In this document: positions 4,034 through 59,524 of the stretch, piece by piece | Position numbering within the stretch: the stretch's first letter is position 1 | How the letters are laid out: each line of letters starts with the position of its first letter | Position numbers and translations under genes: made by a program | NCBI RefSeq assembly: GCF_012295525.1 | Contig: NZ_CP051167.1 | Span: 5,685,299 to 5,749,298, forward strand | DNA from: Oxynema aestuarii AP17 | GTDB lineage: Bacteria > Cyanobacteriota > Cyanobacteriia > Cyanobacteriales > Laspinemataceae | Length of the DNA stretch: 64,000 nt | Reading direction: 5' to 3' | The notes under the pieces: generated by a model | Database searches by the model: none | What the model was told of the DNA's origin: nothing | What the model saw: only the letters and a program-made list of their open reading frames with translations

Positions 4034-4166
4034 GGGGCGTTCGCGGAGGGCCGACCCAGGAAAATCGCCTTAAAATCGAGCATTGAGTGTCTTCTCCAGC
4101 CATTGGCGACGGCGGTCGATTTGGCCGCGTCTTTTTTTGGAGCGCTCCTGCAAACCCTAGCTTGAG

Positions 4167-5138
4167 ATGGTCACCATGTTCGATATCGGACAAAAACTGC
4201 TCGAAATTTACACCCAACTCGGCGGTTTAGCCTTACTCGGCTTTATCCTCGGGCGCTTGCTTCCCCCTCGGATTCCGATGTACGTGGGTCAATTTCTATT
4301 CTGGATCGGGGTTCCGGTGAGCGTGTTTGCATTCGTGCGGCGCACGGATTTATCCGGTTCGATTTGGCTGGCACCCGCGATCGCCTGGGGAGCCATTTTG
4401 TTAGGGGGGGCTCTGGGATGGTTGTGGTTGCAGGTGCGCCAACGCTGGCAGCCCCCGAATGCGGTCAAATCCGCACCGATGTATACCGTAGACACCCCCA
4501 GTCAGGGCAGTTTTCTGCTCGCGGCGATGGTCGGCAATACGGGATATATCGGTTATCCGGTGACCCTGACCCTGGTGGGGGAAAAATATTTCGGTTGGGC
4601 GCTGTTTTACGACTTATTCGGGACCGTGATCGGGGCCTACGGACTGGGAGTGGCGATCGCGGCCCGCTTTGGCGAAGGGGATAAAAACCCCTGGCAAGTG
4701 GCGGCGGCGACGGTTCGTAATCCCACCTTATTCGCCTTGGCCCTGGCGTTGCTGGTGCGATCGCAACCCCTCCCGGCGGCGATCGAAAGCGGCTTGCAAA
4801 CGTTCGCCTGGGGATCGATCTCGGGGGCCTTGGTGCTGCTGGGGATGCGACTGTCGCGACTGCGATCGTGGAGTAGCCTCAAACCTGCGGCAGTTTCTCT
4901 CGGGATTAAAATGCTCGTCGTTCCCGCCATTATCGGCGCGCTGTTAGCTGGGTTTGGGTTGCGCGGGATGCCGCAGTTGGTAATGGTGCTGCAGGTGGCG
5001 ATGCCTCCCGCGTTTGCCAATTTGGTGTTAGCGGAAACCTACCAACTCGATCGCGACTTGACCGTGACGGCGTTGGCGGTCGGATCGGTCGGTTTTTTAG
5101 TCACCTTACCCCTGTGGTTGTTGCTGTTTGGTCGTTAA
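4167..5138 (+). CDS. AEC (auxin efflux carrier)-family membrane transporter
   Basis: ~10 predicted TM segments in the two-half arrangement typical of PF03547-like permeases. Identification is by overall pattern only. Confidence 0.55.
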   Translation: MVTMFDIGQKLLEIYTQLGGLALLGFILGRLLPPRIPMYVGQFLFWIGVPVSVFAFVRRTDLSGSIWLAPAIAWGAILLGGALGWLWLQVRQRWQPPNAVKSAPMYTVDTPSQGSFLLAAMVGNTGYIGYPVTLTLVGEKYFGWALFYDLFGTVIGAYGLGVAIAARFGEGDKNPWQVAAATVRNPTLFALALALLVRSQPLPAAIESGLQTFAWGSISGALVLLGMRLSRLRSWSSLKPAAVSLGIKMLVVPAIIGALLAGFGLRGMPQLVMVLQVAMPPAFANLVLAETYQLDRDLTVTALAVGSVGFLVTLPLWLLLFGR

Positions 5139-10463: not shown

Positions 10464-11250
10464 TATAAGTGCAACCTTAATTCTTTATTAAAAAATAATT
10501 TATTGTTATTTGCTGTTTTTATAAGTTCTTCCTGTAGATAGATTTTAGTCAGTTTAAAACCGAGATAAAGTGAATGGTAAATATAAGCTAAAATCGCAGT
10601 CATTGTCAGCTAAATATCGGAAAGCTCAATCTCTAGTTTAAGAAGCGGTAAAGAAAAGACGAGTTCCTCTCAGCCTCCCGGTAATTGCCCAAAAATAGTT
10701 GATTTTAGGGATTTTTAGGATAAAATAGGTTTAATTTACCTGCTGGCCAACACTGAGATTTTAAAGTGTTAGAATGCAGTTATTTAAGCCTCAAAAAAGC
10801 TTGACAGGGCGATCGCTGCAGTTCCATCGGGATCTTAGTGATGAACGATAAGATTAAATCGATATCAACGCTTTTAAAAATTGAATCTGCGATCGTTTAT
10901 ACCGATCGCCAAAATGGAGGAAGGACGATCGCCTTCAGGGGGAACGCGCCACGAACGATCGCCTCAATGAAAACTAATTCAAACATCGATTGCCGCGAAT
11001 CCATCAAACATGCGTTCGCGTTCGCGCAGCGTGCGCCTTGCGCTTAGCGACGCCTCCAGCGTATCGCATCGTCTTCGTCTGCAAGAGAGTGACTGGGGGG
11101 AATTTTCATCCGTCGGGAAATGGTGGGGGGTTTGGGCATCGGACCCAAGCCGGGTGTATCGGCTAAAAAATAAGACCGAATAACTGATACTAAGTGGTTT
11201 TAGTATTTGCAGCTCACAGGTCAGGTAAAATAATCCAAGAGGTAATTAAT

Positions 11251-42800: not shown

Positions 42801-43769
42801 CTGAACCTTTCTGAAAACGCCCTCATTCCCGAAGCCCCCGAGGGATTCAAATCTGGATTTGTTGCGATTATCGGTCGTCCGAATGTGGGGAAATCCACGT
42901 TGATGAATCGATTGGTGGGACAAAAAATAGCGATTACTTCGCCCGTGGCGCAGACGACTCGCAACCGCCTGCGAGGGATTTTGACGACCCAGAAGGCACA
43001 AATTATTTTTGTTGATACGCCTGGGATTCACAAACCTCATCATCAATTGGGTAAAGTTCTGGTTAAAAATGCTCAAATTAGTATCGATTTAGTCGATGTT
43101 ATTTTGTTTCTCGTCGATGGTTCGACGGTGGCGGGGGGCGGCGATCGCTTCATTGCTGAATTATTGGAAAAAACCAAAACTCCTGTTATTTTAGGATTGA
43201 ATAAAGTCGATCTCAGACCCGAGATTTCTCAGGAACTCTCGGGGGAAAAAACGACAGAAGAAGACCCGATCGATGCCAGTTATCGCGCGATCGCCGAACC
43301 TCACAACTGGCCGATCGTCAACTTTTCTGCCTTGACGGGCGACCGCCTCAATGAGTTGATGCAGTTGTCGATCGATCGCCTCGAACCCGGGCCGTATTAC
43401 TATCCCCCCAACTTGGTGACCGACCAACCCGAACGGTTCATTATGGGGGAATTAATTCGCGAACAAATCTTATTATTAACTCGTGAAGAAATTCCGCATT
43501 CTGTCGCCGTCAGTATCGATCGCGTCGAAGAAACTGAAGCCATTACCCGAGTGTTAGCGACGATTAATATCGAACGTCAATCACAAAAAGGGATTATCAT
43601 TGGAAAAGGCGGTCAAATGCTCAAAGCGATCGGTTCCGCAGCCCGCCAACAAATGCAAAAGTTAGTCGATGGCAAAGTTTATCTCGAATTATTTGTCAAA
43701 GTGCAGCCGAAATGGCGACAATCTCGCACCCGTTTGGCCGAATTGGGTTATAAAGTTGAAAGAGATTGA
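42801..43769 (+). CDS. era: GTPase Era
   Basis: G1 GRPNVGKST, G3 DTPG, G4 NKVD, and a C-terminal KH domain (GKGGQMLKAIG). Upstream in-frame PEGFKSGFVAII suggests a non-ATG start near 42801. The ORF track begins at GTG 42885. Confidence 0.85.
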   Translation: MNLSENALIPEAPEGFKSGFVAIIGRPNVGKSTLMNRLVGQKIAITSPVAQTTRNRLRGILTTQKAQIIFVDTPGIHKPHHQLGKVLVKNAQISIDLVDVILFLVDGSTVAGGGDRFIAELLEKTKTPVILGLNKVDLRPEISQELSGEKTTEEDPIDASYRAIAEPHNWPIVNFSALTGDRLNELMQLSIDRLEPGPYYYPPNLVTDQPERFIMGELIREQILLLTREEIPHSVAVSIDRVEETEAITRVLATINIERQSQKGIIIGKGGQMLKAIGSAARQQMQKLVDGKVYLELFVKVQPKWRQSRTRLAELGYKVERD

Positions 43770-44240
43770 ACCGCATCGGCGTAATCGTTCGATCCGGCAC
43801 GATCGAGATCGCCGAGTCAAGATAGAATAGGAACGCGCGATCGCACGGGAGAAAATTTCCGCCTTTTCCGGGGCGATCGTGGCGATCGTAGAATCTCCTT
43901 GATTGAATTTATATCGTGCTTTATTTTGCTTGAACGGGGTGCAAATCGAGTCAGTCGGCGGGCGATGAAAGCCGATCTAGTTCTCCCGTCCAGTTAATCT
44001 ATCCCTGACGTTCCACTGATGCCCTATCCGAGGGGATGGAGTCAAAAGTAGGCGATCGCACGTGGATCTTCCATTAATAATCTTCCTACTTTTTGGCATA
44101 AACAGTTAAAAATATCGCTCTTTTCAAGGGCTATTATTGGTATTCCACGGAACAGACGGGAAATTGGGTAAATTTTTATCGTTTTGTAGTTCCTTGTTGA
44201 CCTGGATTTAAAGTCAATTCGATTAATTGTTTTTGTTGCT

Positions 44241-47200
44241 ATGTTCTTTTCTCTTGACGGCTACCAAGTCCTCGAATTAGTTTCTGAAACTGCAGCCTCG
44301 AAAGTTTATCGAGGCATCCGAGAAGACGATCGCACCCCAGTCGTCCTTAAACTTCTCAACAGCGAATATCCCACCCCCATTCAGTTAAAACGATATCGAC
44401 GAGAATATGAAATCCAAAAGAAATTAACCGGGGAAAAGATTTGTCAGGCGATCGCGCTTGAAGAATATAAAAACACCCTGATATTAATTTCTGAAGATGC
44501 AGGCATCTGTTTAAAACATCTCCTCAAGCGAGAACCGTTAACTTTGACGGAAAAGCTCGAAATAGCGATCCAAATTTGCGAGGCATTAGCGGAGGTCCAT
44601 CGAGCTAATATTATTCATAAAGACATCAATCCTTTTAATATCGTTGTCAATTCTGAAACTCGCAAAGTAAAGCTGATTGATTTCGGGATTGCAACTGCTT
44701 TAACCCGAGAACATCCCACCCTCAAGAATCCTACAATTTTAGAAGGAACGTTACCTTATATTTCTCCCGAACAAACCGGGCGGATGAATCGATCTTTAGA
44801 CTATCGTAGCGATTTTTATTCCTTCGGGATCGCCTTATACGAAATGTTTTCGGGACGAGTTCCTTTTGAGAGTGACGATGCGTTAGAGTTGGTTCACTGT
44901 CATATTGCTAAACCGCCGACCCCTTTAGATCGCCTAGATTGGGGGGACTCTGGTGATTTTCCCCAACCCTTGAGCGAGATCGTCATGAAATTGCTCGCGA
45001 AAAATGCGGAAGAACGGTATAAAAGTGCGTGGGGAATTCAAGCAGATTTAGCAGAATGTTTGGAACAACTCAAGGCGACCAATAGGGTTCGACCATTTGC
45101 TTTAGGGAAAAAAGATATTTCCGATCGCTTTGAAATTCCCCAAAAGCTTTATGGGAGAGAAAAAGAACTAGAAAGGTTATTAAAAGCTTTTTTTGATGTA
45201 GCTTCCACGCCAGAAGAACGGGGCGATCGCCAATCGGCTCGAACGAAATTGATTGTTGTTGAAGGATATTCTGGGGTAGGTAAATCTTGTTTAGTCTTAC
45301 AACTTTATAAACCCATTACTCGCCGTCGCGGTTATTTTATTTCGGGAAAATTCGATCAATTTCAGCGCAATATTCCCTATTCGGCGGTCGTTAGTGCTTT
45401 TCAGCAATTAGTCCGACAGTTGTTAACAGAAAGTGAAGCAGAATTAAAACGCTGGCGAGATAAAATACTGGCGGCGATCGCCCCCAACGCTCAAGTGATT
45501 GTCGATGTTCTTCCCGATATTGAAAAAATTATTGGTAAGCAGCCCCCAGTCGCCGAAGTGGGGGCGTCAGAAGCCCAAAATCGGTTTAATTTAGTCTTTC
45601 AAAACTTCATTCGGGCATTTTGCGATCGCGACCATCCCCTGACTATTTTTCTCGACGATTTACAATGGGCCGATTTAGCCAGTCTCAAATTGATCGAGTT
45701 AATGATGAGCGACGATCGTACCGAATATTTATTACCGATTGTTTCGTATCGAGAAAATGAAGTCGATGCTACACATCCGGCGATCGTTACCATTGAAAAA
45801 CTGCGTCAACAAGGGATTGAAATCGAGCAGATAGCCTTACAACCTTTGGATAAAGGCGCGATCGCTCAATTAGTAGCCGACACCTTACAGCATCCTGTTG
45901 AAAGAGTAGAAAGCTTAGCAAAATTACTGTTGCAAAAAACGGAAGGAAATCCATTTTTTGTCAATCAGTTTTTACAAACATTATATACAGAAGGCGCTAT
46001 TTTTCTAGATCTCCAGACTCATCAATGGCAGTGGGATGTTGCCGAGATCGAGCGCATGGATATTGCCGAAAATGTCGTTGAATTAACGGTAAAAAATTTA
46101 AAAAAATTACCCGAACTCACTCAAAAAGTTCTCCATCTTGGTGCTTGTCTCGGGTCGGAGTTTGATTTAGATACTCTGGCTACGATCGATCGCCAATCGA
46201 CTCAAGAACTCTTCAATCTCTTACTTCCTGCCGTAGAATCGGGTAGTGTTTTAACCCACAGCGATCGCGAAGAACGTCCCCGTCAAATCTATCAATTTGC
46301 TCACGATCGCATTCAACAAGTCGCCTACAATTCCTTTGAGGAAAACTACACGAAAAATATTCACTTGCAAATCGGTCGTTTTCTCTTGGAAGAAACCCCT
46401 CAAGAGAGTTTGCATGAAAATATTTTCGCGATCGCCGATCATTTTAATTTTGCTAAAGAACGAGTTATCGATTGTAACGAAATTGAAATGATAGCGAAAC
46501 TGAACTTGATGGCTGGAGAAAAGGCGATCGCCTCGACGGCTTATCCTGCAGCTTTAAATTATTGTCAAAAGGCGATCGATTGTCTGAGTGATTCTTGCTG
46601 GGAAGCACAATACGATCTGACCCTAACACTTTATACGAAACTCACCAAGGCGGCATTCTTATGCGGTCAGTTTGACAACGTAGAAAAATTTGCACGCATA
46701 GTTATCGATAACGCCAAGAATCCCTTCGATACCGTGCAAGTGTACTACATTAAAATTGAAACAGGAATGGCTCAAAATCAACTACAAAAAGCCATTCAAA
46801 TTGGTTTGAGCATTCTCAAAAAATTGGGAGTTGATTTTGGAGAAAATCTCGAAGCCATTGACGTGACTCAAAGTCTCGAAAATATTAACCGTCGATTGGC
46901 AAATATCGAACCCGAAAGCCTGCTCGATTTGCCGATCTTAGAAGATCCCCAACAATTGGGAATTCTGGAAATTCTCACTATTGTATCTCCTTGTTCTTTT
47001 ATTACAGCTCCTCAATTATTTATTGCCATCATTTGTAAGCAAATTGAAATTTACTTAGTCGCGGGAAATGCTATAAGTTTCGCTCCCACCACTTACGCAT
47101 TTTATGGATCGATTTGCTGTGGAATTCTGGGGGATGTAGAACGGGGTTATCAATTTGGTAAGCTGGCTATCAATTTAATTGATAAGTTTCACTTAGAAGC

Positions 47201-50096
47201 ACAACGAGCTAAAGTTGCAGTCATTTTTAATGCCACAACGGCTCACTGGAAAGATTCAGTCCAATCGAGCATTCAATCTTTGGTTGAAGCTTACAATATC
47301 GGACAACAAACCGGGGATTTACAATTTGCCGCCCATGGTTTGTATAATGCAGAGTTAGCGGCTTATATGAGTGGATCGCCTTTGCCGGAGTTGCTGGAAC
47401 GGATGGATCGCACGAACAAAATTATGGTTCAACTGCGGCAAAAAACTTTATTAAATTATCATTCAATTCACCATCAATCGATTCTCAATTTACTGGGAAA
47501 TGCTAAAGAAGAAAACCCAGAAGATAACAATACTCCACCCTGGATGTTACTCGGTTCGACGTATGACGAGCGAGAAAAGTTTAGCCTGCACGAGCAAGCC
47601 AAAGATTTGACGGGATTAGTCCATTTTTATTTAGCAAAAACCTTTCTGTTTTATTTATTTGAACAATTCGATCGCGCCCGTGAATTTGCGGAAAGGGGGC
47701 GTCAATCTTTAAGTGGGGTGACCGGACTGCTTTGCGGTTCCGTTTTTCAGTTTTACGAGGTTTTAGCCTATCTCGCATTTTACCCCCAAGCTTCGCCCGC
47801 CGACGGTCCCAGTTTACTCCAAAAAGTCGATGAAGCTCTGGCTAACTTTAAACGCTGGGGAGAACATGCGCCGTCAAATTACTTGCATAAATATTATCTC
47901 ATTAAAGCAGAAAAATATCGCGCGATCGGCGATCCGCTCAAGGCGATGGAAGCTTTCGATCGCGCGATCGAAATTGCGCGAAAATGCGCCTACTTGCACG
48001 AAGAGGCGATCGCCTACGAACGGGCCGCTCATTTCTATCTCGAATTGGGACGAGAAATGATTGCAAAAACTTACTTTTCTCAAGCTTATTATACCTATTT
48101 ACGCTGGGGAGCGATCGCCAAAGTACGAGATTTAGAAAGTCGCTATTCTCAATTTATCGCTCAAACTTCTACAAGTTCGACCCGTACTGTATCGACAAAA
48201 ACGAGCGTTCATACCTCTACCAGTACTGGATCGGGAAGCTCCCTCGATTTGGCGACAGTGATGAAAGCCTCTCAAGCTATTTCTGGAGAGATTCTCCTCG
48301 ATCGCCTCCTCGAACAATTGATGACAATTGTGATGGAAAATGCAGGAGCGCAACGGGGTTATTTAATCTTAGAAAGAAACGAAAAATTCTTTATTGAAGG
48401 GCGCGCCGAACTCGACTCCGTAACTGTTTTAGAATCTCTTTCTTTCGACGATCGCCTACCCATTTCTGTTATTAATTACGTCATTCGGACTCATGAAATA
48501 GTTGTAAAAACAAATGCATTTGAAGCCGGACAGTTCACCAACGATCCCTATATTCAAACTCATCAAACTCAGTCGATGTTATGCGCGCCCTTGCTCGATC
48601 GCGGACAGTTGACCGGGTTAATTTATCTGGAAAACAACTTAACTCCCGGCGCTTTTACCCCAGAACGCATCGAACTGTTACAACTACTTTCCGGACAGGC
48701 GGCGATCGCGATTGCCAATGCCAAACTGTACCAACAAGTCCGCGACAACCAACAACAACTTACCCAGTTTCTCGAAGCGATTCCCGTCGGTATTTTTATT
48801 AGCAATTCCCGAGGTCAATCCTACTATGCCAACCGCATCGCTCAAGAATTAATGGGGCGGGGAATTGCGCCGGAAGCTTCTTTAGAAGAATGGCCCGACG
48901 TCTATCAAATTTATTTAGCCGATAGCAATGCCAAATGCTCTATAGAAAATCTGCCGATCGCCAAAGCTTTAAGTGGCAAAACAATTAAAGTTGACGATTT
49001 AGAAATTGCTCATCAAAATCGACGAGTTCCTATTGAAGTTTTAGCAACGCCAATCTACGACGAACGGGGAAATTTAAACTACGCGATCGCCGCTTTTCAA
49101 GATATTAGCGAACGCAAACAAGCCGAAAAATTACTCGCCGAATACAATCGGACTCTCGAACGACAAGTCGCCGAACGCACCCAAGAACTACAACAAACTC
49201 TCGAATACTTGCAAGCGACCCAACAAGAGTTAATTCAATCGGAAAAAATGGCGGCTTTAGGCCAACTCGTTGCGGGAGTAGCTCACGAAATCAATACCCC
49301 CCTCGGTGCGATTCGTTCTAGTGCGGGCAATATGGGTAAATTCCTCAATCAAAGCCTCGAAGATTTACCCGGAATTTTACAATCCCTTTCTTCAGAAGAA
49401 ACTCGTGAATTCCTCAATTTGCTACGTCGTTCGTTGGAACAAGAAAATACACTTTCTGCACGAGAAGAACGCAAAATCCGCCGCAGTTTAATCCGCGAAC
49501 TCGATGCAGAAAATATCGAAAACAGTACCCACTTAGCCGATACCCTTGTCGATATGGGAATTTACGATAATATCGGCGAACTTTTACCCTTATTTCGACG
49601 GGAAAACAGCGATAAAATTGTCGATCTGGCCTACAAGCTTTCCGGGCTGCAAAAAAGTACGGCTCGTATCGAAATGGCGACGGAACGCGCCTCAAAAGTC
49701 GTGTTTGCACTAAAAACCTACGCTCGTTACGATAGTAGTGGGGAAAAAACGACGGCCAGCTTGAGCGAAAGCATCGAAACGGTTTTGACGTTATATCACA
49801 ACCAACTCAAACATGGAGTCGAAGTCATCCGCAATTACCAAGATCTGCCGCCGATTTGGTGTTATCCGGACGAACTCAATCAAGTCTGGACGAATCTCAT
49901 TCACAATGCTTTGCAAGCGATGAATTATCGAGGTCGATTATGGCTGACGATTGCTCGCTGCGGCGGCGAAGCGAAAGTTTCGATTACAGATAACGGTTGT
50001 GGGATTCCTGCGGAGGTCTTGCCGAAAATTTTCAATCCTTTTTTCACGACCAAACCCGCAGGAGAGGGGAAGCGGTTTGGGACTCGATATCGTTAA
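44241..50096 (+). CDS. HstK-type hybrid sensor: Ser/Thr-kinase-like domain - P-loop STAND/AAA ATPase - TPR-like helical region - GAF - PAS - HisKA - HATPase_c; 3' end frameshifted
   Basis: Kinase subdomains ([20 protein letters not shown]). Walker [12 protein letters not shown] ([16 protein letters not shown]...[18 protein letters not shown]). PAS. H-box [21 protein letters not shown]1 boxes. A 1-nt insertion near 50068-50072 stops the frame at 50096; the remaining G2 box and C-terminus continue in the +1 frame to 50196. Confidence 0.8.
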
Positions 50097-50425
50097 CAAA
50101 ATTGTGCAGAAACATTCAGGTACAATTGAAGTGGAAAGCGAACCGGGTCGCACCAGTTTCCACATTTCTCTGCCGTTACAGATAGATAAAGGGTGAGAGC
50201 GACGATTGCCTAAAAGCGATCGCCTAATTCTAAGGCAGGCATTCTATAATTTTGCTTATACTTCTGACTTGAAGATTACCTTAAGTCGGTACTTGACCCG
50301 GCGCGTGCTTGAAGCTTTATCAATTTTATCCGGTTATTCTCCCAAATGATTTGAGAGATCGATCTACTCCCCCGTCCTGTCACTGTCTCGACGAACCCCC
50401 GTATTGAATAAGGAGACTTCTGCTC

Positions 50426-53400
50426 GTGTTGGTTCTTGAAGGTTATCAGATTCTCGAAAAAATTTGTGAAAGTGTTGCATCTACGGTCTACCGAGGCATC
50501 CGAAAAACCGATCGCCGCCGCGTTATTTTAAAAGTTCTCAATAGTGAATATCCTACCCCAATTCAACTCAAGCGATATGAAAGAGAATATGAAATACTCC
50601 AACTCTTTGATACGGCATCAGTTTGCCAAGCTCTCGGTTTACAAGCCTATGAAAATACCCTCGTCCTCATTATGGAAGATGTGGGAATTTCACTCAAAGA
50701 ACTTATCAAAACATCCCCATTAACTTTAGACGATCGCCTCAGATTAGCGATTCAAGCGTGCGAGGCGATCGGACAGATCCACGCGGTTCACGTCATTCAT
50801 AAAGATATCAATTCTTCCAACCTTGCTGTCAATCCGGAAACCGGAGAATTGAAGGCGATCGATTTCGGTTTGGCGACGGTTTTAACTCAAGAACATCCGA
50901 TCCTTAAAAATCCTTCCATTTTAGAAGGAACTTTAACTTATATTTCCCCCGAACAAACCGGACGGATGAATCGCTCTCTAGACTATCGCAGCGATTTTTA
51001 TTCTCTGGGCGTCACCTTTTACGAACTGTTTTCGGGACGAGTTCCTTTTGAGAGTGGCGATGCTTTAGAGTTGGTTCACTGTCATATTGCTAAAACGCCG
51101 AAACCGTTGTGCGAACTAGATGCGATCGCCGATGGCAAACCGATCCCCGAAGCTATTTCTAAGATCGTGATGAAACTGCTGGCAAAAAATGCAGAAGAAC
51201 GCTATCAAAGTGCTTGGGGGATTAAAGCCGATCTCGAACGCTGTGCGGCGCAATTGCAAGAAAACGGATCGATCGAACCCTTTTCCATCGGTCAATTTGA
51301 CTTATCCGATCGCTTCCATATTCCGCAAAAACTTTACGGTCGGCAAGTTCAAATTCAACAATTACTAGATACTTTTGAGCGAGTTGCAACTCCGAATAAT
51401 TTTCAAGCTCATATTACCTTTATCACCGGATATTCTGGAATTGGTAAATCCGCCCTCGTCGCCGAACTCTACAAGCCAATTACCGCGCGACGGGGCTATT
51501 TTATTACGGGTAAATTCGACCAATTTCAACGCAACATTCCCTATTCGGCAGTCGTACACGCCTTCAAACAGTTGGTGAAATACCTGTTAACTGAAAGTGA
51601 AGGACAGTTATCTCAATGGCGCCAAAAATTACTGACAGCGTTGGGAACGAACGCGCAACTCATCGTCGATGCGATTCCCGAACTCGAAACAATTATTGGC
51701 CCACAGCCGCCCGTTCCCGATCTGGAGCCGTCCGAAGCCCAAAATCGCTTTAATTTTGTCTTTCAACATTTCATTCGGGTGTTTTGTTCTCCGGAACATC
51801 CGTTAACGATCTTTCTCGATGATTTGCAATGGGCCGATTCGGCGAGTTTGCACGCGATCGAGTTGATGTTGTCCGATCTCGAAACACGACATCTATTTAT
51901 TATCGGTGCCTATCGCCATCAAGAAGTGGGGGCGACTCATCCACTGCGGACGACTTTAGAAACTCTGGAAAAAGAAGGGGTTCCGATCGCCAATATTCAT
52001 CTCAAATCGTTGAAGTTAAATCAAATCGCCCAACTGATTGCCGATACTTTACACGACGATGCCGAAGCGGTCAGACCGTTAGCGAAATTGACCTTACAAA
52101 AAACCGGGGGGAATCCCTTTTTTGTCAGTCAATTTTTGAAAACGTTACACGAAAAAGGGGCGATCGCTTTCGATTGCGATCGCCACAGTTGGCAGTGGGA
52201 TCTCAAGCAGATTCAACAGACCAAAATTGCCGATAATATTGTCGAACTCACCCTCGAAAACCTCAAAAAATTGCCGCCGCTTACCCAAGACTTGCTCAAA
52301 ATGGCCGCTTGTCTCGGTTCTAGCTTCCAAACCCAAACCCTGGCGCTGGTGAGCGATCGCCCGGAAGCGGAGATCGGACGGGAGTTGATGAGTGCGGTCC
52401 GTTCGGGGGCGATCGCCACCACGTGCGAATTCGACGATCGCGGCTACATTCGCGAGTATCAATTCACTCACGATCGCGTGCAGCAAGCAGCTTATGCCTC
52501 GATCGCCCCTCGGGAACGTGCGGCCATGCATTTGAAAATCGGGCGGTCTTTGTGGCAGCATACGGACAATTTAGCCGAAAATCTGTTTAAAATCGTCGAT
52601 TGTCTCGATTTTGGCGTCGATTCGATTCACGATCGCCACGAACGGGAACGGGTGGCGGAACTCAACGCGATCGCCGGAGAGAAAGCCAAAGCCGCCAATG
52701 CTTACGCCGCCGCGATCGGCTATTTTAACGTGGGACTGCAATTACTCAGTACCGATGCCTGGGAGCAATCTTACGATCTCACCTTGCGACTCTACCGCGA
52801 AGCTGCCGAAGTCGCCTATTTAGCCGGAGACTACGATCGCCTCGAAGAATTGGCGGACATCGTCTGCGATCGCGCTCGCACCTTGCTCGATCGCATTAAA
52901 GTATATGAAGTGCAAATCGAAGCCTATAAAGCCCGAGGTCAAAACCGCGAGGCGATCGCGATCGCCCGTCCCCTCCTCCAGCAATTGGGTTTCGACCTTC
53001 CCGAAGCGCCGACTCCGGAACAAATCGGTGACGTTCTCGAAACCACGGCTCGATGCTGGCGCGATCGCGGCGTCGAGAGCTTACTAGACCTACCGCCGAT
53101 GCGCGACCCGGAACATCTCGCCGTTATGAGGATCGCCAACCGCCTGTTTGCCCCCATTTTTATCACCGTTCCCACCCTATTACCCGTGCTGGTGGGCAAA
53201 CAAGTTCAGCTCTCGATCGCCCACGGCAATGCACCATCTTCGTGCTACGCCTACGTCAATTACGGCTTAATTTTGTGCGGAATCGTCGGTGAGATCGAGA
53301 TCGGCTATCAATTCGGTCAGTTAGCGCTCAAATCGATCGACCCTCCCAATATGGCACAATATACCGCTCAAGTGCGCGGCCCCTTCCACGCGGGGATCGC

Positions 53401-56326
53401 GATCGGCAAAGAGCATTTAAAAGACTCCCTCGCCCCCCTGCGTGCCGCCTACCAAAAAGGGTTGGAGTTTGGGGACTTGTATTATGCAACTACCTGCGCT
53501 TTTGTATACAGTCTCCACGGCCTTTTTTCCGGGGTCGAACTCGATCTCCTCGACTCACAAATCGCCGCCTATCGCGACGCGATCGCCCAACTGCAACAAA
53601 CCACGACTTTAATTTATACATCGATTTACCACCAAACCCTTTTAAACTTAGTCCATCCGAGCGAAACCCCCTGGAAGTTCTGCGGCGATGCTTTCGACGA
53701 AGGCCAGCAATTAGCCGCCATTGTTGAAACGAACGATCGCTATGCCCTTTGCGCGTTCTACATCCATAAACTCTTCCTCGCTTACTTGCTCGACGGCTCG
53801 ACTGACTTGAGCGAGCTACTCGAAAACAGCGCCGAATATTTAGACGGAGCCACCGGAACCCTGTTAGTGCGCCTGTTCCATTTTTACGGCGCTTTAACTC
53901 GTTTAAAACTCTATCCATCGGCAACAGAACAACAACGACAAGTACACCTCGAAGCCGTCGAATTGTCCTGTCAAAAATTACAAAATTGGGCTAAATTTGC
54001 GCCGATGAACTACGCCCATAAATATCATCTCGTCGTGGCGGAACGGGCGCGAGTTTTGGGAGAAAAAATCGAGGCGATCGAACATTACGATCGCGCGATC
54101 GAACTGGCGCGCCAACATCAATATCTCAACGAAGAAGCCCTCGCCAACGAACGAGCCGCCCTCTTTTATCAAGGGTGGGGTAAAGCGAAAATTGCCCGGG
54201 TCTATCTCGCCGAAGCTTACTATGCCTATCAACGTTGGGGCGCGATCGCCAAAGTCAAGCAATTAGAACGACAGTATCCCGACTGGATCGATTCGTCAAC
54301 GGGGATAGCACCTCGCCTCGGCGTCAACACGACCACGACCCACCATTCCACCGCCACCGAATCGATTAAAGCATTAGATTTCGCCACCTTTATGAAAGCC
54401 TCTCAAGCCATTTCCGGCGAAATCATTTTAGAAAAACTACTCGTCGAACTATTAAAAATTCTCCTGGAAAATGCCGGGGCGCAAGTCGGCTATTTAATTT
54501 TAGAAACTGACGGGGAACTGCTCGTACAAGCGCGCGGGGAACGAGAAGGGGAAGATATCGCCGTTTTGGAAGCGTTACCGTTGGGCGATCGCCTGCCTCA
54601 ATCGGTAATTAACTACGTCGTTCGCACCAAAGAAACGATCGTCAAAACGAATGCGACTCGGGAAGGAAAATTTACCAACGATCCGTACATCCAAACCCAT
54701 CAAATCCAGTCGATGCTGTGTGCGCCCTTGCTCGATCGCGGGCAGTTAACTGGGTTAATTTATCTGGAAAATAACTTAACCCCCGGCGCTTTTACCCCGG
54801 AACGAGTCGAACTGTTGCAATTACTATCTTCCCAGGCGGCGATCGCGATCTCCAACGCCAAACTGTACCAACAAGTGCGCCAAAATCAACAACAACTCAC
54901 CCAATTTCTCGAAGCGATTCCCGTCGGCGTTTTCGTCGTCACCGCCCAAGGAGAACCCTTTTACGCCAACCGACGCGCCCAAGAAATCCTCGGACAGGGA
55001 ATTATTCCCCAAACCCAAAGCGATCGCCTCGGGGAGGTCTATCAAACTTACGTCGCCGGAACCGATCGCCTCTATCCCAACGAACGCAATGTCGTCCTAC
55101 GCGCCTTGAAAGGAGAAACCGCCACCATAGACGACGCCGAAATTCACCAACACGGGAAAATTATCCCCATCGAAGCCTCCTGCACCCCGATTTACGACGG
55201 CGACGGTAAAATTGTCTACGCGATCGCCGCGTTTCAAGATATCACCCAGCGCAAACAAGCGGAACAATTACTCGCCGAGTACAACCGCACCCTGGAACAG
55301 CAAGTCGCCGAACGCACTCAAGAATTACAGCAAACCCTCGAATATCTGCAAGCCACTCAGCAAGAACTGATTCAATCGGAAAAAATGGCCGCTTTAGGCC
55401 AACTCGTCGCCGGAGTCGCCCACGAAATCAATACGCCCCTGGGCGCCATTCGCTCCAGTGCGGGCAATATGGCCAAATTTCTCAATCAAAGCTTGGAAGA
55501 ACTACCCGGGATCTTCCAATCCCTCTCCCCGGAACAAACCCGGGAATTCCTGGATCTGTTGAGTCGTTCCCTGCAACAAGAAAACACCTTGTCCGCCCGC
55601 GAAGAACGCAAACGGCGGCGCGCCTTAGTCGGCGAACTCGACGCACGATCCATCGAAAATAGTACCCATCTCGCCGATACCCTCGTGGATATGGGGATTT
55701 ACGAGAATATCGACGAATTTTTCCCGTTATTTGAACGTCCCGACAGTCCCCACATCGTCGATCTCGCCTACAAACTGTCCGGACTGCAAAAAAGTACGAC
55801 CCGCATCGAAATGGCGACGGAACGCGCCTCGAAAGTGGTGTTTGCGCTCAAAACCTACGCCCGTTACGACAGCAGTGGCGAAAAAATGGCCACGGATTTG
55901 AGTGAAAGTATCGAAACGGTTTTGACCTTATATCACAACCAGATCAAACACGGGGTCGAAGTCGTCCGCGATTACGAAACTTTGCCCCCCATTCCGTGTT
56001 ATCCGGACGAACTCAATCAAGTTTGGACGAATTTGGTTCATAACGCCTTACAGGCGATGGACTATCGCGGTACTCTGACCGTGGCGATCGCCCGGGACGG
56101 CGATCGGGCCAAAATTACCATTGGCGATAGCGGACCGGGAATTCCCGAGGAGGTCTTACCGAAAATCTTCAATCCCTTTTTCACGACCAAACCCCCCGGC
56201 GAGGGTAGCGGTTTGGGACTCGATATCGTCAATAAGATCGTGCAGAAGCATTCCGGTAAGATTGAAGTGGAAACTCGACCGGGTTCGACCTGTTTTCATG
56301 TTTTTCTTCCTTTAGAGCCGCATTAG
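50426..56326 (+). CDS. HstK-type hybrid sensor, intact paralogue (Ser/Thr-kinase-like - STAND ATPase - helical - GAF - PAS - HisKA - HATPase_c)
   Basis: Same architecture as the upstream gene. Complete G2 box [31 protein letters not shown] lies 9 nt before GTG 50426. Confidence 0.85.
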   Translation: MLVLEGYQILEKICESVASTVYRGIRKTDRRRVILKVLNSEYPTPIQLKRYEREYEILQLFDTASVCQALGLQAYENTLVLIMEDVGISLKELIKTSPLTLDDRLRLAIQACEAIGQIHAVHVIHKDINSSNLAVNPETGELKAIDFGLATVLTQEHPILKNPSILEGTLTYISPEQTGRMNRSLDYRSDFYSLGVTFYELFSGRVPFESGDALELVHCHIAKTPKPLCELDAIADGKPIPEAISKIVMKLLAKNAEERYQSAWGIKADLERCAAQLQENGSIEPFSIGQFDLSDRFHIPQKLYGRQVQIQQLLDTFERVATPNNFQAHITFITGYSGIGKSALVAELYKPITARRGYFITGKFDQFQRNIPYSAVVHAFKQLVKYLLTESEGQLSQWRQKLLTALGTNAQLIVDAIPELETIIGPQPPVPDLEPSEAQNRFNFVFQHFIRVFCSPEHPLTIFLDDLQWADSASLHAIELMLSDLETRHLFIIGAYRHQEVGATHPLRTTLETLEKEGVPIANIHLKSLKLNQIAQLIADTLHDDAEAVRPLAKLTLQKTGGNPFFVSQFLKTLHEKGAIAFDCDRHSWQWDLKQIQQTKIADNIVELTLENLKKLPPLTQDLLKMAACLGSSFQTQTLALVSDRPEAEIGRELMSAVRSGAIATTCEFDDRGYIREYQFTHDRVQQAAYASIAPRERAAMHLKIGRSLWQHTDNLAENLFKIVDCLDFGVDSIHDRHERERVAELNAIAGEKAKAANAYAAAIGYFNVGLQLLSTDAWEQSYDLTLRLYREAAEVAYLAGDYDRLEELADIVCDRARTLLDRIKVYEVQIEAYKARGQNREAIAIARPLLQQLGFDLPEAPTPEQIGDVLETTARCWRDRGVESLLDLPPMRDPEHLAVMRIANRLFAPIFITVPTLLPVLVGKQVQLSIAHGNAPSSCYAYVNYGLILCGIVGEIEIGYQFGQLALKSIDPPNMAQYTAQVRGPFHAGIAIGKEHLKDSLAPLRAAYQKGLEFGDLYYATTCAFVYSLHGLFSGVELDLLDSQIAAYRDAIAQLQQTTTLIYTSIYHQTLLNLVHPSETPWKFCGDAFDEGQQLAAIVETNDRYALCAFYIHKLFLAYLLDGSTDLSELLENSAEYLDGATGTLLVRLFHFYGALTRLKLYPSATEQQRQVHLEAVELSCQKLQNWAKFAPMNYAHKYHLVVAERARVLGEKIEAIEHYDRAIELARQHQYLNEEALANERAALFYQGWGKAKIARVYLAEAYYAYQRWGAIAKVKQLERQYPDWIDSSTGIAPRLGVNTTTTHHSTATESIKALDFATFMKASQAISGEIILEKLLVELLKILLENAGAQVGYLILETDGELLVQARGEREGEDIAVLEALPLGDRLPQSVINYVVRTKETIVKTNATREGKFTNDPYIQTHQIQSMLCAPLLDRGQLTGLIYLENNLTPGAFTPERVELLQLLSSQAAIAISNAKLYQQVRQNQQQLTQFLEAIPVGVFVVTAQGEPFYANRRAQEILGQGIIPQTQSDRLGEVYQTYVAGTDRLYPNERNVVLRALKGETATIDDAEIHQHGKIIPIEASCTPIYDGDGKIVYAIAAFQDITQRKQAEQLLAEYNRTLEQQVAERTQELQQTLEYLQATQQELIQSEKMAALGQLVAGVAHEINTPLGAIRSSAGNMAKFLNQSLEELPGIFQSLSPEQTREFLDLLSRSLQQENTLSAREERKRRRALVGELDARSIENSTHLADTLVDMGIYENIDEFFPLFERPDSPHIVDLAYKLSGLQKSTTRIEMATERASKVVFALKTYARYDSSGEKMATDLSESIETVLTLYHNQIKHGVEVVRDYETLPPIPCYPDELNQVWTNLVHNALQAMDYRGTLTVAIARDGDRAKITIGDSGPGIPEEVLPKIFNPFFTTKPPGEGSGLGLDIVNKIVQKHSGKIEVETRPGSTCFHVFLPLEPH

Positions 56327-56346
56327 AACTTATGGAGGCGTTGACC

Positions 56347-56742
56347 ATGTCAAAACCCGTTATTTTATGTGTCGATGACGAAAAAGTTGTGTTAGACAGT
56401 CTCAAAAGCCAACTCAAGCAAGCCTTCGGAGATAAGTATTTTTACGAAATGGCCGAAGATGGAGCCGACGCCCTCGACGCGATCCAAGAACTCATGGAAG
56501 ATAGCATCCCGATTGTCATGATTGTTTCCGATTGGCTGATGCCGGGAATGAAAGGAGATGAGTTGTTAATTCGCATTCACCAACAATATCCGAACATCGT
56601 TAAAATCATGCTCACGGGTCAAGCCGAACCCTCGGCGATCGAACGAGCGAAACAAGAAGCCAATTTAAGTTTTTGTTTGCACAAGCCTTGGTCTGAAGAG
56701 GAATTAGTAACGGCAATTCAAGCTAGTTTAGCAAAGTTATGA
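56347..56742 (+). CDS. Single-domain response regulator (CheY-like receiver)
   Basis: VILCVDDE...IVSDWLMPGMKG...KIMLTGQ...HKPW receiver motifs. SD GGAGG lies 8 nt before ATG 56347. Starts 21 nt after the HstK stop. Confidence 0.8.
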   Translation: MSKPVILCVDDEKVVLDSLKSQLKQAFGDKYFYEMAEDGADALDAIQELMEDSIPIVMIVSDWLMPGMKGDELLIRIHQQYPNIVKIMLTGQAEPSAIERAKQEANLSFCLHKPWSEEELVTAIQASLAKL

Positions 56743-58517
56743 CGAAACAAGTCATTGTTTGTGTCGATGACGAACCGACAGTGTTGAGAAGCTTAAAAGC
56801 CGAACTCAAAGAAGCCGTCGGTGCCGATTATTTAATTGAAATTGCCGAAGGAGGCGAAGATGCGTTGGAGTTGGTTGAGGAATTACTCGAAGATGGTTAT
56901 GAAATTCCCCTAATCGTTTCCGATCATATCATGCCGGATATTAAAGGAGACGAACTGTTAAAAAGAGTTCACGAAATTTCTCCATCTACGTTGAAAATTA
57001 TGCTCACGGGTCAAGCCAGTATCGAAGCCGTGGGCAATGCCATTCAATATGCCCGCCTCTATCGTTATATTGCTAAACCTTGGCAGGCAGAAGATTTAAA
57101 ACTGACGGTCAAAGAAGCGATTAATAGTTATTTTCAAGAAAAGAAATTAGCCGAACAAAACGTCCAACTCCAAAAAATGAACGAAGAGTTGGAACAGTTA
57201 AACCGAGAACAGGCGGCGTTAATTGCCAAGTTACACGAAAAGGAAAATCGCCTGACCCAGTTTTTAGAGGCGATGCCCGTTGGCGTGTTTGTGGTCGATC
57301 GCGATGGCCAGCCTTATTATATTAACTCTCGCGCCCAACAACTGCTCGGACGGGGGGTGGAGTCTAATACAGTTTTAAGTGAAATTCGCTCGATTTATCA
57401 GGTCTATTTGGCCGGAACGGAGCAATTATACCCCGAACAGAGCGATCCGTTATTGCAAACCTTGCGGGGGAAGAGTATGACCGTGGATGATATGGAAATT
57501 CACCACGGCGATCGCGCGATCCCCATTGAAGTTTGGGGAACGCCGATTTACGACGATGAAGGTCAAATTGCTTACGGGATTGTCGCCTTTAACGATATCA
57601 GCGATCGCAAGAAAGCCGAAGCAGAACGGCAGCAGTTTATTCAAGAACTTTTTGAACTCAATACCAACTTAGAACTGGCGTTAGATTCCGAACTCAAATT
57701 GACCGACGCCGCCAGTCGCTTCGTCCCGAACGAGTTTCTTTCGTTTCTCGGTTACGAAAGTATTGCCGAAGTCAAATTAGGCGATAGCATAGAACAAGAA
57801 ATGTCCGTGTTTTTCTCCGATATTCGCGACTTTACTACCCTATCGGAGACGATGACGCCGGAAGATAACTTTAAATTTATTAATGCGTATTTATCGAGAA
57901 TGGAACCCGCGATCGTCGATAATCAGGGGTTTATTGATAAGTTTATCGGCGATGCGATTATGGCCTTGTTTGGCGGGGAAGCCGACAATGCAGTGAAAGC
58001 GGGCATTTCGATGCTGCATTGCTTACACGATTATAACGAACATCGCGATCGCTCCGGCTATTTACCCATTTCTATCGGCATCGGTATTAATACCGGACGC
58101 TTGATGCTCGGAACCGTCGGCGGATCGTTAAGAATGGACGGTACTGTGATTAGCGATGCGGTTAATTTGGCTTCGCGACTGGAAGGGTTAACCAAAAATT
58201 ACGGCGTCTCTTTACTGATTTCTCATCATACCTATTCTCGCTTACATAACGCCGACGATTATGCAATTCGCCTGATCGATCGCGTCAAAGTCAAAGGCAA
58301 ATCGGAAAGCGTCACGGTCTACGAAGTTTTTGATGCCGACTTGCCGAAATTAAAAGCTGGAAAACTCGCCAGTCTCGATCGCTTTGCTAAAGCGTTGGAT
58401 CTCTACAATCGCCACGTCTATCGCGAAGCTGCGGACCTCTTTCAAGCCTGTTTGGAACTCGAACCCGGCGATACGGTCGCGCAGATCTATCATAACCGAG
58501 CTTGCGATCGCCTTTAA
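56739..58517 (+). CDS. Response regulator with receiver - coiled coil - PAS - class III adenylate/guanylate cyclase domain
   Basis: REC (VIVCVDDE...VSDHIMPDIKG). The PAS region is homologous to the HstK PAS region (LTQFLEAMPVGVFVV...). Cyclase motifs FSDIRDFTTLSE, KFIGDAIMALFG, NLASRLEGLTK. ATGA overlap with the upstream REC gene. Confidence 0.85.
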   Translation: MTKQVIVCVDDEPTVLRSLKAELKEAVGADYLIEIAEGGEDALELVEELLEDGYEIPLIVSDHIMPDIKGDELLKRVHEISPSTLKIMLTGQASIEAVGNAIQYARLYRYIAKPWQAEDLKLTVKEAINSYFQEKKLAEQNVQLQKMNEELEQLNREQAALIAKLHEKENRLTQFLEAMPVGVFVVDRDGQPYYINSRAQQLLGRGVESNTVLSEIRSIYQVYLAGTEQLYPEQSDPLLQTLRGKSMTVDDMEIHHGDRAIPIEVWGTPIYDDEGQIAYGIVAFNDISDRKKAEAERQQFIQELFELNTNLELALDSELKLTDAASRFVPNEFLSFLGYESIAEVKLGDSIEQEMSVFFSDIRDFTTLSETMTPEDNFKFINAYLSRMEPAIVDNQGFIDKFIGDAIMALFGGEADNAVKAGISMLHCLHDYNEHRDRSGYLPISIGIGINTGRLMLGTVGGSLRMDGTVISDAVNLASRLEGLTKNYGVSLLISHHTYSRLHNADDYAIRLIDRVKVKGKSESVTVYEVFDADLPKLKAGKLASLDRFAKALDLYNRHVYREAADLFQACLELEPGDTVAQIYHNRACDRL

Positions 58518-58619
58518 AGCCCTGTTTTTATCGATCCGATCCCCCCGCCGTTGACCGACACTCGACATGCGTACTCGGGACGACGTTCGCGGTGGTGCTT
58601 CCCTCTACTTCTCGCAAGT

Positions 58620-58875
58620 TCTGCTAAATTGTGGAAAACTTGCCTACGGACGTTGAAAGGCTGTGGAAAACTTGGGGAAAGGTTGGGGAAAACTCGGGGA
58701 AAATGCAAGATTTCCCACGGGCGTTCGCCTAGGGTCTCCAAGGGAGAATAGGTTCACATCTCCCCTCGGATAGCAAAAATCGGGGGTTTTCCACAGGTTT
58801 TCCACAGGTGCTGGGACAGGCGATCGCCCCAACTCGGGGAAAGATCGGTGATTTTCCACAAGTTCCACCAGGAAG
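58620..58875. repeat. Intergenic repeat cluster: 2 direct and 3 inverted copies of TGTGGAAAAC(TTG), plus repeated (A)CTCGGGGAAA units
   Basis: Seen in sequence. TGTGGAAAAC at ~58628 and ~58660. GTTTTCCACAGG at ~58788 and ~58800. ATTTTCCACAAG at ~58851. Confidence 0.7.
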
Positions 58876-58939
58876 GATCCCGGGAAGCATCGGTTTCTAA
58901 AAACCCTAGTGGTGGCGCCTCCAGCACGCGATCGTGCTT

Positions 58940-59524
58940 TCAGACAGGCGATCGTCGTTGGTCGAGGATCTTCATCCAGTTCTCGATTCCCTTGCGCGTC
59001 GGCTGACCCGTGGCGGTAAACGTCCACAGATCTTGTTTGGATTGGGAACTATAACTCACGTGGATCGGGCGATCGCTCCCGTAGAAATAGAGAGAATCAA
59101 ACGGTAATTGCGCTTCTAGTATCCAATCGACCACGCGATCGCTCCCCACATTGAGAATGCGAAAGTCGCAGGCGGCCCCCAACCGGGGACAGTAATAAGC
59201 GCCGTTGCGATTGCGTTCGCAGGCCATGTGTTGGTCGAGACGGGGCGCCACGCGCCCGTTTTTTTTACCTGTTTCCGGGTCTTTTCGTTCTAAAAACCGT
59301 TTTAAATCTTTAGAACAAAAACCGTAAGTCAGTTGAAAGTTCTCGAACCCAAACTGTTCGATGGTCGGATCGAGAATTCGCTCGTTTAAAGCGATTAAAG
59401 CGGGTAACGTTTCTTCGAGATTTTCGGGATAAGGATTGATGCGATCGCGATATTTTTGATAAGTTTGGCTGCAGGTGCAAAAGGTTTCTAAGGTCAAATA
59501 TTTGAACGAATAGGAAACGCTCAT
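58940..59524 (-). CDS. Hypothetical Cys-containing protein
   Basis: ORF with coherent composition. Cys at CTCS, HMACERN, YYCPRLGAACDF. No family recognised. Confidence 0.4.
   Translation of the reverse strand: MSVSYSFKYLTLETFCTCSQTYQKYRDRINPYPENLEETLPALIALNERILDPTIEQFGFENFQLTYGFCSKDLKRFLERKDPETGKKNGRVAPRLDQHMACERNRNGAYYCPRLGAACDFRILNVGSDRVVDWILEAQLPFDSLYFYGSDRPIHVSYSSQSKQDLWTFTATGQPTRKGIENWMKILDQRRSPV

Follow-up and report, generated by a model that had tools for sequence, protein, structure and literature searches.

Cyanobacteria possess a 'dual protein kinase' family, cbSTKIII, described by Zhang et al. 2007 (PMC2176072), in which the kinase, GAF and HisKA trees are incongruent and domains have been shuffled and recruited (PMC2176072). 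Two of its members, Alr0709 and Alr0710 (named Pkn40/Pkn41), are a co-transcribed tandem pair (PMC2176072). Here, we analyze a locus of this type in a stretch of 64,000 nucleotides (nt) from Oxynema aestuarii AP17 (contig NZ_CP051167.1, positions 5,685,299 to 5,749,298), which we call the window and to which all coordinates refer unless another sequence is named. The locus holds four co-oriented genes on the plus strand: two large hstK-type paralogues (A and B), a single-domain response regulator (REC) and a REC-PAS-class III nucleotidyl cyclase (C) (Table 1). It resembles the known HstK/cbSTKIII systems (Alr2258 HstK; Alr0709/Alr0710) in module order, in having a tandem paralogous pair and in its discordant domain trees, but differs from them in that the A/B pair is confined to Oxynema, with the nearest homologues elsewhere at most 51% identical, and has REC and REC-PAS-cyclase genes next to it. 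That the HstK family evolves as a mosaic, with shuffling of domains, is already on record (PMC2176072), and A/B is a new, well-resolved example. In the literature, we found no earlier description of a mosaic this fine, in which similar linkers flank a divergent PAS core, and nothing relevant on gene conversion in tandem histidine kinases.

We find that A and B form a patchwork of similar and diverged segments, for which old ectopic recombination between the tandem copies together with strong purifying selection is the best explanation (rough probability 0.6). Duplicated tuf genes are an example of gene conversion and concerted evolution of bacterial paralogues. The A/B pair is like such cases in its segment-limited excess similarity within one genome and in a discrete exchanged tract between close strains. 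Unlike in tuf, the homogenization of A/B appears old and partial, with a synonymous divergence (dS) of at least 0.8, and the recent event is reciprocal rather than one-way.

Segmental similarity of the two kinases

Pfam places the same modules in the same order in both proteins: Pkinase, AAA_16, a long TPR-like region, GAF, PAS, HisKA and HATPase_c. This bears out the first-pass annotation of tandem hstK paralogues upstream of a REC-PAS-cyclase gene; a small REC gene lies between B and C. In a codon alignment the two are 57% identical overall, and sliding-window identity shows that divergence is not uniform along the pair. Amino-acid identity is 64% in the kinase domain, 63% in AAA_16, 38% over residues 641-1340 and 60% in the N-terminal half of GAF. 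It is 88% in the C-terminal half of GAF with the PAS N-cap, 36% in the PAS core, 91% in the coiled coil and HisKA (one 50-codon window reaching 100%), 81% in the DHp-CA linker and 76% in HATPase. The mosaic proposed earlier is thus confirmed as a strongly uneven similarity, but the parts that have diverged are the middle and the PAS core rather than the kinase region.

At the DNA level, blastn aligns the genes at 69.8% over 1465 nt at the 5' end and at 72.8% over 2276 nt at the 3' end, with no DNA match in the middle (46157-47937). The 5' and 3' matches are thus about equally similar, which contradicts the earlier statement that the 5' kinase region is much more diverged. Exact identity extends furthest in the kinase domain, in two runs of 30 nt at 44845 and 44883. 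Near-identical nucleotides had been reported at 48590-48800. This segment pairs with 54727-54937 (an offset of 6137, not 6130) at 86.3% DNA identity, and no exact in-register run anywhere in the 3' half is longer than 27 nt, the next longest measuring 26 nt. The three similar 3' blocks have 75-100% protein identity, yet their DNA is only 83-86% identical.

A second tandem HstK-type pair is present in a Waterburya metagenome-assembled genome (MAG; L047, 3114-9140 and 11974-17818), with ends 64-87% similar and a middle diverged at 43-53%. Similar ends around a diverged middle may be general for tandem HstK members.

Table 1 Features of the locus and of related sequences. Coordinates are those of the window unless a sequence (L number) is given; ratio, A-B distance relative to the family (see text); ORF, open reading frame.
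Feature	Coordinates	Strand	Basis or remark
hstK-type paralogue A	44241..50196	+	ORF list, Pfam domains; 1984 residues when intact
hstK-type paralogue B	50426..56326	+	ORF list, Pfam; 1966 residues, GTG start
Single-domain response regulator REC	56332..56742	+	Gene calls and Pfam (L001), translation; 136 residues
C, REC-PAS-class III nucleotidyl cyclase	56739..58517	+	Pfam Response_reg, PAS, Guanylate_cyc; 592 residues
PAS domain of C	57252..57620	+	Pfam, motif, alignment
Similar block 1: GAF C-terminal half, linker helix, PAS N-cap	A 48501..48800, B 54638-54937	+	88-95% amino-acid, ~86% DNA identity
PAS core, island of divergence	A 48801..49100, B 54938-55237	+	28-50% amino-acid identity, flanked by similar blocks
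Similar block 2: coiled coil, H-box/DHp, DHp-CA linker	A 49101..49850, B 55238-55987	+	80-100% amino-acid identity
Similar block 3: C-terminal part of HATPase_c	A 49971..50196, B 56108-56326	+	Ratio 0.09-0.38
Central TPR-like region, diverged part	A 46157..47937, B ~52321-54068	+	30-45% amino-acid identity, no DNA match
Kinase C-lobe tract of A, exchanged in CENA135	44780..44912	+	Crosswise sites; both 30-nt exact A/B runs lie here
Partner tract in B of the kinase-domain exchange	50962..51094	+	Crosswise sites
One-base insertion in A, GGGGAAGCGG instead of GGGGAGCGG	50066..50071	+	Comparison with other assemblies
HstK-cyclase fusions	L056 9980-15280; L041 9980-15280; L071 3199-8574; L035 5217-10703; L063 9977-15400		Single proteins, Pkinase-AAA-GAF and class III cyclase domain

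Age of the similarity

To scale the divergence, 36 homologues from other genomes were added to an alignment of A and B of two strains, and the A-B distance was expressed, segment by segment, as a ratio to the median distance to these homologues. The ratio is 0.71 for Pkinase, 0.95 for AAA, 0.81 for residues 501-640, 1.00 for each half of the middle, 0.80 for the N-terminal half of GAF and 0.96 for PAS. Values for the other segments are 0.22 (GAF C-terminal half), 0.23 (coil and HisKA), 0.36 (linker) and 0.28 (HATPase). On a 40-residue sliding scale, the low-ratio blocks are A residues ~1421-1520, 1621-1860 and 1911-1984 (0.1-0.45), and the PAS core reaches 0.94-1.24. Neighbor-joining trees with 100 bootstraps group A with B in 100/100 replicates for Pkinase, the GAF C-terminal half and the linker. 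Over residues 1001-1340, B instead joins Waterburya/Pleurocapsa-type homologues (L004-L006) in 64/100, and in PAS it joins Microcoleus (L010) in 56/100.

Synonymous sites were assessed by Nei-Gojobori dS and by identity at fourfold degenerate sites, counted at codons encoding the same residue in A and B. Within the similar blocks, dS amounts to 0.8-1.5; the middle has reached saturation. Observed fourfold identity, compared with that expected at saturation, is 0.63 versus 0.31 in the GAF C-terminal half, 0.55 versus 0.35 in the linker, 0.54 versus 0.27 in HATPase and 0.43 versus 0.25 in the kinase domain. For coil and HisKA (residues 1626-1740) it is 0.38 versus 0.36, and for the first half of the middle 0.27 versus 0.24. 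With finer block limits, 65 of 120 fourfold sites are identical in the blocks (54%) and 93 of 263 in the rest (35%; Fisher P = 7.5e-4); identity is 62% in block 1, 32% in the PAS core (6/19) and 56% in block 3.

Third-position GC content (GC3) varies along both genes. In A it is ~0.35, rising to 0.49-0.51 only in the GAF C-terminal half, the linker and HATPase; in B it is 0.45-0.72, except for 0.40 in the kinase domain, where it equals that of A. This gives a hint, and only a hint, of B-to-A transfer in the 3' blocks and A-to-B transfer in the kinase domain. Over 44241-56326 as a whole, GC3 spans 0.34-0.51 in A and 0.40-0.72 in B, so that the paralogues are strongly unlike each other and uneven along their lengths.

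The low ratios and the excess of fourfold identity suggest that part of the similarity reflects a younger common ancestor, through conversion or partial duplication, and dS values of at least 0.8 in the blocks would make such an event old rather than recent. For the coil and DHp, 91% protein identity combined with saturated synonymous sites points to near-identity held by selection. Hence, the gene conversion or partial duplication suggested in the first-pass annotation is supported for the part of the 3' half with ratios of 0.22-0.36, as an old event mixed with selection; the word 'recent' finds no support.

Strain comparison and exchange

The same locus is present in Oxynema sp. CENA135 (L084) at 95.8% DNA identity. 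When A and B of AP17 and of CENA135 are aligned together, 1889 variable sites separate the two genes, 6 separate the two strains and 16 are crosswise. Of these 16, ten are packed into 103 columns of the kinase C-lobe (permutation P<=5e-5), in a tract located in CENA135 at L084 ~4362-4494 and 10543-10675. Over these 133 nt, A of AP17 differs from B of CENA135 at one position and A of CENA135 from B of AP17 at five, compared with 11 differences between the two A genes and 13 between the two B genes. At the protein level, A of AP17 and B of CENA135 read SFGIALYEM...SDD, A of CENA135 reads SLGVTFYEL...SED and B of AP17 reads SLGVTFYEL...SGD, six residues being altered in each protein. A third lineage (L085) has the AP17 arrangement, which makes the swap derived and reciprocal in CENA135; the L085 B tract is identical to the CENA135 A tract. 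By these comparisons, the reciprocal swap of ~120 nt is the only recent A/B exchange found. An assembly artefact seems unlikely to us: the swap has a patchy 5' border, where exact A/B matches reach 14 nt at most, too short for a k-mer mis-join.

Apart from this kinase tract, ongoing concerted evolution of A and B is not seen, given the 1889 gene-specific and 6 strain-specific sites, and the three Oxynema lineages have no cluster of crosswise or strain-specific sites in the 3' half. Screening six sequences for conversion in one direction gave scattered sites and a loose cluster in A of AP17 (columns 4130-4575). We did not use the cluster as evidence, because a substitution on the shared branch of the other two strains gives the same pattern where A almost equals B. 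Both copies are under purifying selection between strains; in A, synonymous and non-synonymous codon changes number 16 and 1 in the linker and 13 and 4 in HisKA.

Separately, AP17 and CENA135 differ by only 0-0.7% (2.3% in one 300-nt window) over 54224-58424, a tract of ~4.2 kb covering B from GAF to its end, REC and C, compared with 3-7% on both flanks; L085 differs by 2.7-3.3% there. The tract looks like a recent import by homologous recombination between lineages, or a sweep, that would have moved the B transmitter together with both response regulators.

Origin of the patchwork

Under the preferred explanation, old gene conversion or partial duplication would have given the GAF C-terminal half with the PAS N-cap, the DHp-CA linker, the end of HATPase and part of the kinase domain a younger shared ancestor. 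The recombined patches would then have kept an excess of synonymous identity and a GC3 intermediate between A and B. Purifying selection would account for the coiled coil and the phospho-accepting DHp helix, at 91-100% protein identity over saturated synonymous sites. The central TPR-like region, the N-terminal half of GAF and the PAS core would have escaped homogenization, leaving A and B as far apart there as any family members, with B nearer to homologues of other genera than to A. The two genes would still be exchanging sequence ectopically, as in the kinase C-lobe swap of CENA135.

The alternative that survives best, although we think it unlikely, is a single whole-gene tandem duplication without conversion, the patchwork reflecting only differences in purifying selection. 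It accommodates the saturated fourfold sites beneath the 91% identity of the coil and HisKA, the dS of at least 0.8 everywhere, a middle that evolves fastest across the whole family (median p-distance 0.6-0.7) and is also diverged in the Waterburya tandem pair, and the monophyly of A and B over residues 641-1000 (91/100 bootstraps). However, normalization by the family should cancel differences in constraint, and the ratio still runs from ~0.1 to 1.2. Constraint is also at odds with the fourfold excess in the blocks, with the shift of the GC3 of each gene toward the other exactly in the similar blocks, and with B being nearer to L004-L006 (in the middle) and to L010 (in PAS) than to A.

Rather improbable, in our judgment, is a chimera made by domain shuffling, in which the N-terminal part and middle of another HstK lineage were joined to a copy of the segment that runs from the GAF C-terminal half to the transmitter in the other gene, and the PAS core was later replaced from a third source. 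Domain recruitment and incongruent domain trees are known in the family (PMC2176072), homologues carry many different C-terminal outputs, and the PAS of B shares 68% identity with its Microcoleus L010 counterpart, compared with 50% with that of A. Such a history would require several independent joining events that hit the N-cap and the J-alpha helix precisely, and the kinase domain, too, groups A with B (100/100); with the present outgroups, it is indistinguishable from conversion tracts that spared the PAS core. A recent gene conversion or partial duplication of the 3' half is scarcely credible: the 88-100% amino-acid identity in the three blocks and the direct tandem repeats, a suitable substrate in a pair known to exchange, speak for it, but the DNA is only 83-86% identical there with exact runs of at most 27 nt, dS is 0.8-1.5, coil and HisKA are saturated at fourfold sites, and the three Oxynema lineages keep 1889 gene-specific against 6 strain-specific sites without a 3' cluster.

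Several points weigh against the preferred explanation of old recombination plus selection. The nearest outgroups are only 45-51% identical, and no species at intermediate distance with an A/B pair occurs among the homologues. With outgroups so distant, the date and direction of the old conversions depend on rate normalization, on 19-55 fourfold sites per block and on composition. The grouping of B with other genera is weak (the 64 and 56 bootstraps above), and the monophyly over residues 641-1000 runs contrary to it. Part of the contrast between segments could come from A having evolved faster, and if both kinases co-evolved with the same response regulators in this lineage, their DHp could look as though it had a recent common ancestor. 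The swap is seen in a single draft assembly of CENA135, and the phosphotransfer to REC and C, the heterodimers and the nucleotide produced are predictions only.

We tentatively suggest, as a possibility of lower standing, that selection shapes the conversion tracts: linkers and transmitter would be repeatedly homogenized or frozen to serve the same response regulators, perhaps also heterodimers, and the PAS core and TPR-like region would be protected by their different inputs. If so, the borders at the PAS N-cap and J-alpha helix would mark, in nature, the places where one sensor module can replace another while signaling stays intact, and the reciprocal swap in CENA135 would show the process to be still active. 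For the study of evolution, the pair would offer a clean, well-bounded case of segmental homogenization between tandem cyanobacterial signaling genes, with a datable exchange between sister strains, and its DHp domain an example of 91-100% protein identity over saturated synonymous sites. Nothing here overturns current views, and the pattern is ordinary for the HstK family (PMC2176072).

The PAS module

The first-pass annotation quoted a PAS motif common to A, B and C and concluded that all three proteins probably sense the same ligand or signal. The motif is indeed present in all three. Over 123 residues, however, the PAS cores are 50% (A-B), 50% (A-C) and 52% (B-C) identical, and those of HstK homologues in other genera are 44-68% identical to them, the upper value being that of B with Microcoleus L010 and the other homologues reaching 44-58%. 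In this 123-residue comparison the three domains are therefore not one another's closest relatives, and the PAS tree of A, B and the homologues puts B with L010.

A profile built from the three domains was used in a HMMER search of 1.84 billion cluster representatives and matched 1,293 of them at E<=1e-30 and 22,059 at E<=1e-10. Sampled matches have the architectures REC-PAS-cyclase, REC-PAS-histidine kinase (HK), REC-PAS alone, GAF-PAS, GAF-PAS-GGDEF, GAF-PAS-cyclase and dCache-HAMP-PAS-HK. On this distribution, the motif is the consensus of a widespread, promiscuous PAS subfamily, with a coiled-coil input (GAF, REC or HAMP) on one side and an output domain on the other.

The AlphaFold model of the B domain (predicted local distance difference test, pLDDT, 88) has a five-stranded sheet, flanking helices and long N- and C-terminal helices. 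Foldseek relates it to many PAS structures with probability 1.0 and TM-scores of 0.5-0.7, and the sequence and fold matches in the PDB are generic PAS domains (TodS, WalK, DosP, BvgS, LOV, CitA and FixL, at most 26% identical), TodS being the only one found at the sequence level (E = 1e-5). The domain is like the linker PAS domains of histidine kinases (TodS PAS1, WalK, CitA PASc, BvgS PAS) in that its A'-alpha and J-alpha helices are continuous with coiled coils, but is unlike solved PAS domains in its low identity to them and in the absence of diagnostic LOV flavin or haem residues. Reading of the three sequences found no LOV NCRFL cysteine motif, no histidine on the predicted F-alpha helix (VVLRAL, PIAKAL and PLLQTL) and no cysteine conserved among A, B and C; neither the sequences nor the structure matches point to a cofactor class (LOV flavin, FixL/DosP haem or PYP). 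The E-F region usually lines or closes the ligand pocket of PAS domains. Between A and B it is the least conserved stretch, at 28% identity, compared with 95% for the N-terminal and 83% for the C-terminal helix.

The absence of diagnostic residues, the wide spread of the subfamily and the divergent E-F region together give a common ligand no support. If anything, A and B appear to differ in PAS input rather than to share one, and for annotation a common PAS motif should not be taken as a common ligand.

HstK family membership

Both proteins have an N-terminal Ser/Thr kinase domain (Pkinase, E = 1e-36 in A and 8e-35 in B) with readable HKD, DFG and SPE motifs, and a GAF domain between the two kinase modules (E = 7e-18 and 6e-18). 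HisKA, at 26.1 and 25.6 bits, narrowly misses the Pfam threshold of 26.9, but the H-box AHEINTPLG is readable. HATPase_c is found in B at E = 2e-26; in A it is cut by a frameshift in AP17 and complete in four other assemblies. We therefore assign A and B, from domain content, to the HstK-type 'dual' kinases (cbSTKIII), with a Ser/Thr kinase, a STAND-like ATPase, a TPR-like region, GAF, PAS and a histidine-kinase transmitter.

The HisKA match covers only profile positions 2-49 of 66 (A 49250-49700, B 55390-55840), and in both proteins the gap between the H-box helix and the conserved helix that follows exceeds 100 residues. The DHp region would thus contain an insertion of unusual length, which is conserved in the Coleofasciculaceae homologues.

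A probable shared output and links to cyclases

The order hstK-REC-REC-PAS-cyclase also occurs in Coleofasciculus (L066 and L023), and L029 has an hstK gene with two REC genes and a cyclase-domain gene on the opposite strand. In Anabaena, other cyanobacteria and Chloroflexi-type MAGs, single proteins of ~1770-1830 residues fuse an HstK-like N-terminal part to a class III cyclase domain (Table 1). Their N-terminal parts are ~40-46% identical to B over its first ~1,480-1,495 residues, and their cyclase domains are 45-68% identical to that of C. By their domain make-up, the fusions link HstK-type sensors to cyclase output. With its REC-PAS-Guanylate_cyc architecture, C is like response-regulator class III cyclases and cyanobacterial kinase-GAF-cyclase fusions, but unlike the fusions it is a separate protein downstream of two kinases. 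More generally, HstK homologues vary in their C-terminal output, which may be HisKA types, REC, PP2C or cyclase.

Different sensory parts with an almost identical transmitter suggest the same downstream partners. We infer two inputs and one output, A and B phosphorylating the same receivers, REC and C, and cyclic-nucleotide synthesis by C being the probable output of the pathway. A and B may also form heterodimers through the identical DHp. Hence, these duplicate-looking 6-kb genes are best annotated as most likely two sensors feeding one cyclic-nucleotide output.

Frameshift in A and other features

In AP17, the reading frame of A stops at 50096 instead of 50196, owing to an extra adenine at ~50070 (Table 1). 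The frame shifts within the ATPase domain, in its G2 box, and A loses 33 residues at its end. Four other assemblies (L001, L002, L084 and L085) lack the extra base and encode an intact A of 1984 residues; the RefSeq entry for A of Oxynema aestuarii is the truncated product of 1951 residues. The frameshift would be either a sequencing error in AP17 or a strain-specific loss of the histidine-kinase activity of A.

The distance from the intact end of A to B is 229 nt. B, REC and C are closely spaced, with 5 nt from B to REC and a 4-nt overlap of REC with C. B is 96% identical to an 'AAA family ATPase' of CENA135. A promoter and terminator scan of 43700-59000 gave a result no better than shuffled sequence. 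Overall GC across the window ranges from 0.36 to 0.61. CENA135 carries ~1.35 kb (L084 20874-22218) that is absent from AP17 (at window position ~61241), lies between a DUF3493 gene and a beta-helix/SLH gene and has no called gene.

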